Positions 20,697 through 20,723 of a DNA stretch of 64,000 nt are shown here, in pieces. The position numbers were made by a program, and so were the translations under genes. Source of the DNA: Escherichia coli (GTDB lineage: Bacteria > Pseudomonadota > Gammaproteobacteria > Enterobacterales > Enterobacteriaceae); assembly GCF_003334765.1 (NCBI RefSeq), contig NZ_QOWT01000005.1; one strand, written 5' to 3'. The notes beneath the pieces were generated by a model, which did not search any database, was not told the origin of the DNA, and saw nothing but the letters and a program-made list of their open reading frames with translations. Numbering within the stretch: position 1 is the first letter of the stretch; every line of letters begins with the position of its first letter.

Positions 20697-20723
20697 CCCG
20701 CCGTGGCGCAACACCACGGCGGG
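20697..20723. terminator. Bidirectional hairpin between convergent operons
   Basis: Perfect 10-bp stem CCCGCCGTGG / CCACGGCGGG with 7-nt loop, located between the LptG-like stop (20695) and the synthase stop (20730). Confidence 0.5.

Follow-up and report, generated by a model that had tools for sequence, protein, structure and literature searches.

A hairpin between the convergent spt and lptG-paralogue operons of Escherichia coli with the anatomy of a one-sided predicted terminator

A prevalent class of bidirectional terminators has been described by the Liu laboratory between convergent genes of Escherichia coli (bioRxiv 10.1101/2022.10.23.513370). These differ from intrinsic terminators, are independent of Rho and involve a stem-loop that fixes the site at which polymerases collide (bioRxiv 10.1101/2022.10.23.513370). 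Palindromes at gene ends have also been assigned combined functions, as in an E. coli 3'UTR REP palindrome that is both a partly Rho-dependent terminator and an mRNA stabiliser (bioRxiv 10.64898/2026.03.23.713779). The dispersed repeat known as BoxC, PIT or TMECO is present in 23 copies in K-12 and is associated with raised variability of the loci that carry it, and earlier work cited in the same source found BoxC/PIT elements to be without promoter or terminator activity (PMC4666352). Several BoxC copies lie between convergent genes, and a terminator role via G-quadruplexes has been speculated for them (PMC5100583).

The present analysis concerns a 64-kb stretch of E. coli DNA (the window) in which one hairpin (hairpin 1, 20697-20723) lies where the operons ending in an lptG paralogue and in spt converge, and a second (hairpin 2) lies between yghO and glcC. 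Hairpin 1 belongs, as an unremarkable example, to a familiar kind of element, with the full anatomy of an intrinsic terminator apparent in one direction only, that of spt. The preferred reading, to which we assign a probability of roughly 0.65, is that it serves as the Rho-independent terminator and 3'-end hairpin of the aasR-epi-acpR-spt operon.

The RefSeq annotation used here was taken from strain PF9285, which differs from the window by 9 mismatches in the first 32 kb. The second half of the window (32001-64000) is not collinear with PF9285 (IS1 and IS5 copies and another arrangement there), giving 22519 positional mismatches in that half. The region 19500-22000 is 100% identical to several complete E. 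coli genomes, and the locus is carried by 4146 of 5426 complete genomes of the species. K-12 has lost the spt/lptG-paralogue locus, which is therefore absent from standard transcript-end maps.

The operon on the + strand (14224-20695) comprises, by annotation, yghS, yghR, a yghQ-like gene annotated as 'LPS biosynthesis protein', a hypothetical gene, a ytfJ-like gene and paralogues of lptF and lptG, with small gaps or overlaps between neighbouring genes. Its last gene is the lptG paralogue (19616-20695, from the RefSeq annotation of the near-identical genome). On the - strand, aasR-epi-acpR-spt extends from 24817 down to 20730 and ends with the serine palmitoyltransferase gene spt (20730-21902); aasR, epi and acpR are annotated as a fatty acyl-AMP ligase, an epimerase/dehydratase and an acyl carrier protein, respectively. 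These four genes make 3-oxo-sphinganine in E. coli BL21(DE3), and yghO is the proposed N-acyltransferase of the sphingolipid pathway (PMC9386255). Within 15773-20695, the lptF/lptG paralogues, the YtfJ-family gene and the Wzx-like 'LPS biosynthesis' gene converge on aasR-epi-acpR-spt, with yghO as aca. Promoter-like sites in its surroundings were no more frequent than chance would give (14 against 14.0 expected). The placement of hairpin 1 at the 3' ends of two convergent multi-gene operons (yghS to lptF-lptG on +, aasR-epi-acpR-spt on -), put forward in a preliminary description of this DNA, is borne out by the annotation.

Hairpin 1 consists, on the + strand, of a 5' arm CCCGCCGTGG (20697-20706), read directly from the sequence, a 7-nt loop (20707-20713; CGCAACA on +, UGUUGCG on -) and a 3' arm CCACGGCGGG (20714-20723), the arms forming a perfect 10-bp stem of nine G-C pairs and one A-T pair. 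It fills the 34-nt gap (20696-20729) between the stop codon of the lptG paralogue (TAA, 20693-20695) and that of spt (20730-20732; TTA on +, TAA on -), and starts 1 nt past the former and 6 nt past the latter. The GC-rich stem, its exact coordinates and the length of the gap thus agree with the preliminary description, as does the folding-energy check proposed there, which places the hairpin beyond chance on both strands. The + strand RNA forms 10 pairs with an energy of -20.8 to -22.7 kcal/mol (z = -4.0; 0 of 200 shuffles equal), and the - strand RNA reaches -29.9 to -33.7 kcal/mol (z = -6.3; likewise 0 of 200). The - strand fold has a core of 12 pairs (-24.2 kcal/mol), in which two loop bases pair (U-G and G-C) to leave a 3-nt loop, and is extended by G-U and A-U pairs at the base of the stem to a total of 16 pairs, giving the spt-strand structure UGAGCCCGCCGUGGUG-UUG-CGCCACGGCGGGUUUA (20693-20727). 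Perfect stems of at least 10 bp with loops of 3-10 nt number five in the 64-kb window, compared with 0.52 +/- 0.71 in 100 dinucleotide shuffles. Hairpin 1 is real and far beyond chance.

The two strands differ in what follows the stem. Tails were scored with the TransTermHP formula (PMC1852404), for which the candidate cut-off is -2.5 and random 15-mers of the window's composition have a mean of -2.07. The spt-sense tail UUUAAUGUUGUCUGU (20682-20696, - strand), which overlaps the last codons and stop of the lptG paralogue on the opposite strand, scores -4.0, a value matched by 0.7% of the random 15-mers, and its U-tract UUUAAUGUUG directly follows the stem with five U in the first eight positions, although it is interrupted. 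On the other strand, the tail CUCACAUUACUGCUU (20724-20738, +), which overlaps the stop and last codons of spt, is not a U-tract; this 15-nt tail, CTCACATTACTGCTT (CUCACAUUA), scores -2.07, which equals the random mean and falls short of the cut-off. A consensus terminator scan of 15000-30000 returned the 16-pair form of hairpin 1, with 10 G-C pairs, as the strongest terminator-like site, on the - strand, and made no + strand call at hairpin 1. The features of an intrinsic terminator are thus a GC-rich stem-loop and a U-rich, if not ideal, tract in the spt sense, and a GC-rich stem-loop lacking the U-rich tract in the lptG sense. Nor is the symmetric A-tract/hairpin/T-tract arrangement of a bidirectional terminator present, hairpin 1 being A/T-rich on one side only. 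The proposal that hairpin 1 can terminate in both directions is accordingly supported for spt, where terminator anatomy is evident, and is no more than a possibility for the lptG sense, where the tail is no better than random.

In the preferred reading, polymerase leaving spt would transcribe the GC-rich stem (12 core pairs, up to 16) and then UUUAAUGUUG; the spt-sense hairpin would form in the exit channel, the weak rU:dA hybrid would melt, and the spt transcript would come free a few nucleotides inside the 3' end of the lptG paralogue. That hairpin 1 actually terminates transcription, as well as the efficiency and direction with which it does so, we infer from these features. The predicted efficiency may be moderate, since the U-tract is interrupted and partly able to pair with an upstream UGAG. 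Folding may also be modulated by translation, because hairpin 1 starts so close to both stop codons (1 nt after that of lptG, 6 nt after that of spt) that a terminating ribosome would probably sit on the 5' arm, where it might impede folding on either strand.

The element is a palindrome in the 34-nt gap, so the lptG-paralogue operon also transcribes a stable hairpin (-21 to -22 kcal/mol). With a tail equal to random and a scan call on the - strand only, any action of hairpin 1 on lptG transcripts must be non-canonical. Such an action is expected to be weaker, and may consist of a pause or roadblock where converging polymerases meet; alternatively, the stem may form a stable 3' end to which lptG-sense transcripts are trimmed back after ending downstream, for example by Rho in untranslated antisense spt.

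The first of these possibilities borders on a true bidirectional terminator, in which hairpin 1 would stop both operons either intrinsically or by collision, with the hairpin pausing both polymerases so that they collide head-on at a fixed place and are dislodged by trailing polymerases. This reading draws on the fact that one stable hairpin forming in both RNAs occupies the whole convergent gap, in keeping with the reported class of terminators between convergent E. coli genes, but collision-driven termination is reportedly efficient mainly in highly expressed pairs (bioRxiv 10.1101/2022.10.23.513370), and the random-like lptG-sense tail and - strand scan call also argue against it. On balance we regard it as unlikely.

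The second possibility can be generalised to a hairpin that acts mainly as a protector of RNA 3' ends, with polymerases ending downstream (for example, through Rho acting on untranslated antisense RNA) and 3'-to-5' exonucleases trimming back to the stem, thereby setting the mRNA ends and half-lives of both operons. The stem is very stable in both senses, as this would require, no U-tract is present in the lptG sense, and the 3'UTR REP element provides a precedent (bioRxiv 10.64898/2026.03.23.713779). Stretches compatible with Rho loading are present in both directions, namely a C-rich, G-poor stretch 118-200 nt downstream in the lptG sense (C/G 1.4-1.9) and another such stretch immediately downstream in the spt sense (C/G about 1.5-1.6), although the C/G ratio is a crude indicator of Rho sites. 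The significantly U-rich spt-sense tail, in the top 0.7%, speaks against protection as the main function, which we consider a tentative and rather doubtful explanation; protection is nevertheless compatible with termination of spt transcripts at the same hairpin.

Within E. coli, the 55-nt region containing hairpin 1 was found in 4113 of 5426 complete genomes, at a median of one place per genome, and its arms show no repeat beyond chance within the 64-kb window. Hairpin 1 as a REP, MITE or other dispersed repeat was ruled out on account of this single copy per genome, an observed property of the element in the same way as its anatomy, statistics, conservation and covariation. An Rfam scan of 14000-30000 (E <= 1) gave no match at hairpin 1 or hairpin 2; the only two matches, to the XIST A-repeat and the fluoride riboswitch, were weak, sub-threshold and located elsewhere, and were taken as chance.

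Of the carriers, 78% have one of three haplotypes of the 55-nt region: that of the window (1384 genomes), one with an A inserted in the loop (1187) and one with a G>A change in the 3' arm (653). The G>A haplotype keeps a G-U wobble in the spt-sense RNA (-27.7 kcal/mol) and has a C-A mismatch in the lptG-sense RNA (-15.7 kcal/mol). The occurrence in 16% of genomes of a variant that weakens the lptG-sense stem by ~6 kcal/mol is a further point against termination of both operons at this site. An asymmetry between the strands was also sought in polymorphism, where G>A favours the spt-sense RNA and Escherichia lineage E1V33 shows the opposite, a wobble in the lptG sense and a mismatch in the spt sense; these opposing cases mean that polymorphism does not settle which strand is under selection, and no firm conclusion was drawn from it.

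Pairing is maintained across the genus. When eight Escherichia sequences are aligned, among them E. whittamii and cryptic-clade genomes, 96% of stem cells are paired, and double compensatory changes occur at two pairs (G-C to A-U in E. whittamii, C-G to U-A in strain SCPM-O-B-8794). Only 8 of 500 column shuffles do as well, and every slid register is only 38-59% paired. Judged by its sequence, hairpin 1 appears to be a real, selected, terminator-type hairpin where two operons meet. A natural hairpin-loss allele exists in E. coli PAR (locus L005, 1501-1536, corresponding to window 20715-20729), in which the 3' arm and the spt stop codon are both lost to a 12-nt deletion and spt is annotated as a pseudogene.

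The same observations bear on a function at the level of DNA, in which hairpin 1 would be a palindromic site for protein binding or recombination, the remnant of a mobile repeat (REP, MITE) or a palindrome that arose by chance. Binding of a dimeric protein to a 10-7-10 palindrome is conceivable, and hairpin 2 does belong to a dispersed repeat. Hairpin 1, however, is single copy per genome and has no related copy in the window, chance would supply 0.5 such stems per 64 kb, and the changes in its arms are compensatory and include a G-U wobble, as expected for base pairing and not for sequence-specific half-sites. As described below, hairpins of this shape but of unrelated sequence also recur at the corresponding place in other genera. 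Taken together, this makes a DNA-level element very improbable.

A scan of one genome per species identified 54 loci encoding Spt relatives. Those that retain a convergent lptG paralogue belong to Escherichia, Citrobacter amalonaticus, C. youngae, Pseudocitrobacter, Hafnia paralvei and a Pluralibacter MAG, the last with the lptG paralogue 799 nt from spt. At each of the ten convergent lptG/spt loci with a short gap, a single strong hairpin separates the two genes, and its sequence is unrelated between genera (Citrobacter, Pseudocitrobacter and Hafnia each have a different one). Compensatory differences are found between Pseudocitrobacter species, whose hairpins have no good U-tract in the spt sense and so fit a stabiliser or pause site as well as a terminator. 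This regular presence of one strong hairpin at convergent junctions of other genera, often without good U-tracts, would suit a bidirectional terminator. Convergence is not needed for the hairpin, however: almost all spt orthologues of other genera have a strong hairpin of differing sequence behind them, and it persists after spt in Serratia, Mangrovibacter, Rosenbergiella, Pantoea and Pseudomonas, in which no downstream convergent lptG paralogue was identified; the hairpin is thus tied primarily to the 3' end of spt.

The longest perfect stem served as the measure of hairpin conservation after spt and gave a clean separation: one of at least 10 bp occurs within 130 nt after spt at 15 of 32 loci, compared with 0 of 224 equal-sized segments inside spt (p = 6e-10). 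The best hairpin energy within 135 nt was rejected as a measure, as it separates only modestly (median -22.3 against -19.0 kcal/mol in coding controls, p = 6.5e-5) because long imperfect folds are common in GC-rich coding sequence. Several loci (L019, L020 and L031) have textbook A-tract/hairpin/U-tract terminators after spt, and such intrinsic terminators at the orthologous place weigh against a hairpin that mainly protects RNA ends. The recurring feature is thus a strong hairpin ending the spt operon, with its sharing by a convergent operon a local circumstance.

Citrobacter, Pseudocitrobacter and Hafnia retain the convergent lptG/spt pairing, which may point to lipid export by a dedicated system. 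A more far-reaching idea, which we consider improbable, is that hairpin 1, as a bidirectional terminator of the collision type, provides a mechanical coupling between two accessory operons with linked functions, one for sphingolipid-precursor synthesis and the other for putative lipid export (Wzx-like YghQ, YtfJ-like protein and LptF/LptG paralogues). If this were true, transcription of either operon would determine how efficiently the other is terminated and how far its 3' ends overlap, and the recurrence of a hairpin without a U-tract at this junction in several genera would reflect selection for coupling. Under the preferred reading of hairpin 1 as the terminator of the spt operon, its more immediate value is to show where the E. 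coli spt operon and the adjacent lptFG-paralogue operon have their 3' limits, which would be useful for cloning or engineering either of them.

Hairpin 2 (26351-26370) was proposed to separate yghO and glcC in the same way. The perfect 8-bp stem is present as described, with arms AGGGGCGA (26351-26358) and TCGCCCCT (26363-26370) and a 4-nt loop, AGGGGCGA-TCCC-TCGCCCCT, in the 75-nt yghO-glcC spacer (26331-26405), but the parallel with hairpin 1 fails: the stem has no U-tract on either side (tail scores -1.5 and -1.68), lies within a BoxC repeat and is found at this junction in few genomes. Perfect stems of at least 8 bp number 23 in the window against 7.2 +/- 2.5 by shuffling, an approximately threefold excess. 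The spacer folds no better than its shuffles (z = -1.7 on +, -0.5 on -), and the consensus terminator scan of 15000-30000 did not call hairpin 2.

The BoxC/PIT/TMECO core motif CCCTCGCCCCTCGGGGAAAGGGTTAGGGTGAGGGT (type 'A mm'-like) occupies 26360-26394 on the + strand, as identified from aligned copies and the TMECO table. Copies at glnH-glnP, yhjD-yhjE, argE-ppc, pstB-pstA and ypfG-tkt align over ...GCGCACGG.CGGTCCCCTCGCCCCT.GGGGAGAGGGTTAGGGTGAGGGG, and in the alignment with these five the hairpin 2 element conforms to the BoxC consensus CCCTCGCCCC-N-GGGGAGAGGG-TTA-GGGTGAGGGG. Matches to the 75-nt spacer are detectable at a median of 7 places per genome and at 16 at most; no annotated feature lies beneath any of the 52 BoxC matches listed, and all six retrieved copies are located between genes. 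The element resembles the published type A BoxC (CCCTCGCCCC-TC-GGGGAAAGGG-TTA-GGGTGAGGGT) in being multi-copy, intergenic and at a strain-variable locus. Unlike in the usual BoxC, the left flank AGGGGCGA pairs perfectly with TCGCCCCT, and the resulting 8-bp stem competes with the usual CCCTCGCCCC/GGGGAGAGGG pairing, which here has two mismatches.

The left junction between yghO and BoxC was found in 187 of 5426 E. coli genomes with a junction-specific query. A higher occupancy of 543 genomes, obtained by requiring at least 80% cover of the spacer, was set aside, since BoxC copies elsewhere in the genome probably inflate it. In K-12, UPEC132 and most genomes, the stop codons of yghO and glcC are separated by 6 nt, with no hairpin. 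Alignment with K-12 and UPEC132 indicates that an 85-nt BoxC-bearing segment (26337-26421) stands in place of 10 nt of K-12, CTAACTCAGG, and alters the final codons of glcC (256 against 254 codons). The C-terminus of GlcC reads ...EMNKVGM in the window and ...EMNLS in K-12, and the UPEC132 junction has a third sequence, TCACCCCTGC. The three forms of the yghO-glcC junction suggest repeated insertion and excision scars. Hairpin 2 is therefore an incidental stem in a known BoxC repeat and not a dedicated or conserved terminator, and it serves as a warning that an intergenic stem between convergent genes need not be a terminator.

Other palindromes were noted in the window. A perfect AT-rich palindrome of at least 10 bp, TCGCTATATAT-GACA-ATATATAGCG (1463-1487), is located in the yghX-yghW spacer just upstream of yghW and looks more operator-like than terminator-like. 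Perfect 10-bp palindromes lie inside glcA (GCGCACCGGT..ACCGGTGCGC, 34576-34602) and inside an ORF of 1169 aa (ACATCATTAA..TTAATGATGT, 56510-56538). The AT-rich perfect palindrome TAAAAACTAAAAAC-TTTTAGTTTTT (60088-60112) overlaps the stop of the ORF at 59109-60107 (+), which converges on that at 60185-61393 (-), making this another convergent-junction hairpin.

Compared with the canonical intrinsic terminator, hairpin 1 has on the spt strand the expected GC-rich stem-loop and U-rich tail, located 6 nt past the last gene of the operon, and in this sense passes both the tail and the hairpin candidate thresholds of TransTermHP. It departs from the canonical form in the interruption of its U-tract (UUUAAUGUUG) and in having none on the lptG strand. 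With the collision class of Ju et al. 2019 it shares a stem-loop between convergent genes, and members of that class need not look like intrinsic terminators (bioRxiv 10.1101/2022.10.23.513370); the class is defined by mapped overlapping 3' ends and Rho independence, and K-12, in which that work was done, lacks the hairpin 1 locus. REP and BIME elements are palindromes outside genes, located at gene ends, where they can dampen transcription and stabilise the mRNA upstream, and hairpin 1 is similarly placed, but it lacks the REP consensus and occurs once per genome. A REP element, GCCGGATGCGGCGTAAATGCTTTATCCGGC, is found in the window at the convergent hybG/yghU junction (8531-8563, 69-nt gap), and the first half of the window contains four convergent junctions with four different kinds of palindrome.

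The closest comparison within the window is the junction of pitB (+) and yghT (-) (13319-13355, 48-nt gap), which reads as a textbook symmetric bidirectional intrinsic terminator, GAAAATGCCCGGTC-CTGGC-GATCGGGCATTTCCATTTTTG. As at hairpin 1, one hairpin is shared by two convergent genes across a short gap. The pitB/yghT element (GAAAATGCCCG...CGGGCATTTCCATTTTTG) is U-rich after the stem on both strands, whereas hairpin 1 is one-sided, with TTAAA before the stem on + and CTCACA after it. By its sequence features pitB/yghT is the better example of bidirectional termination than either hairpin 1 or hairpin 2, and hairpin 1, as a 'shared' hairpin that is one-sided, offers a natural test case for models of convergent termination.
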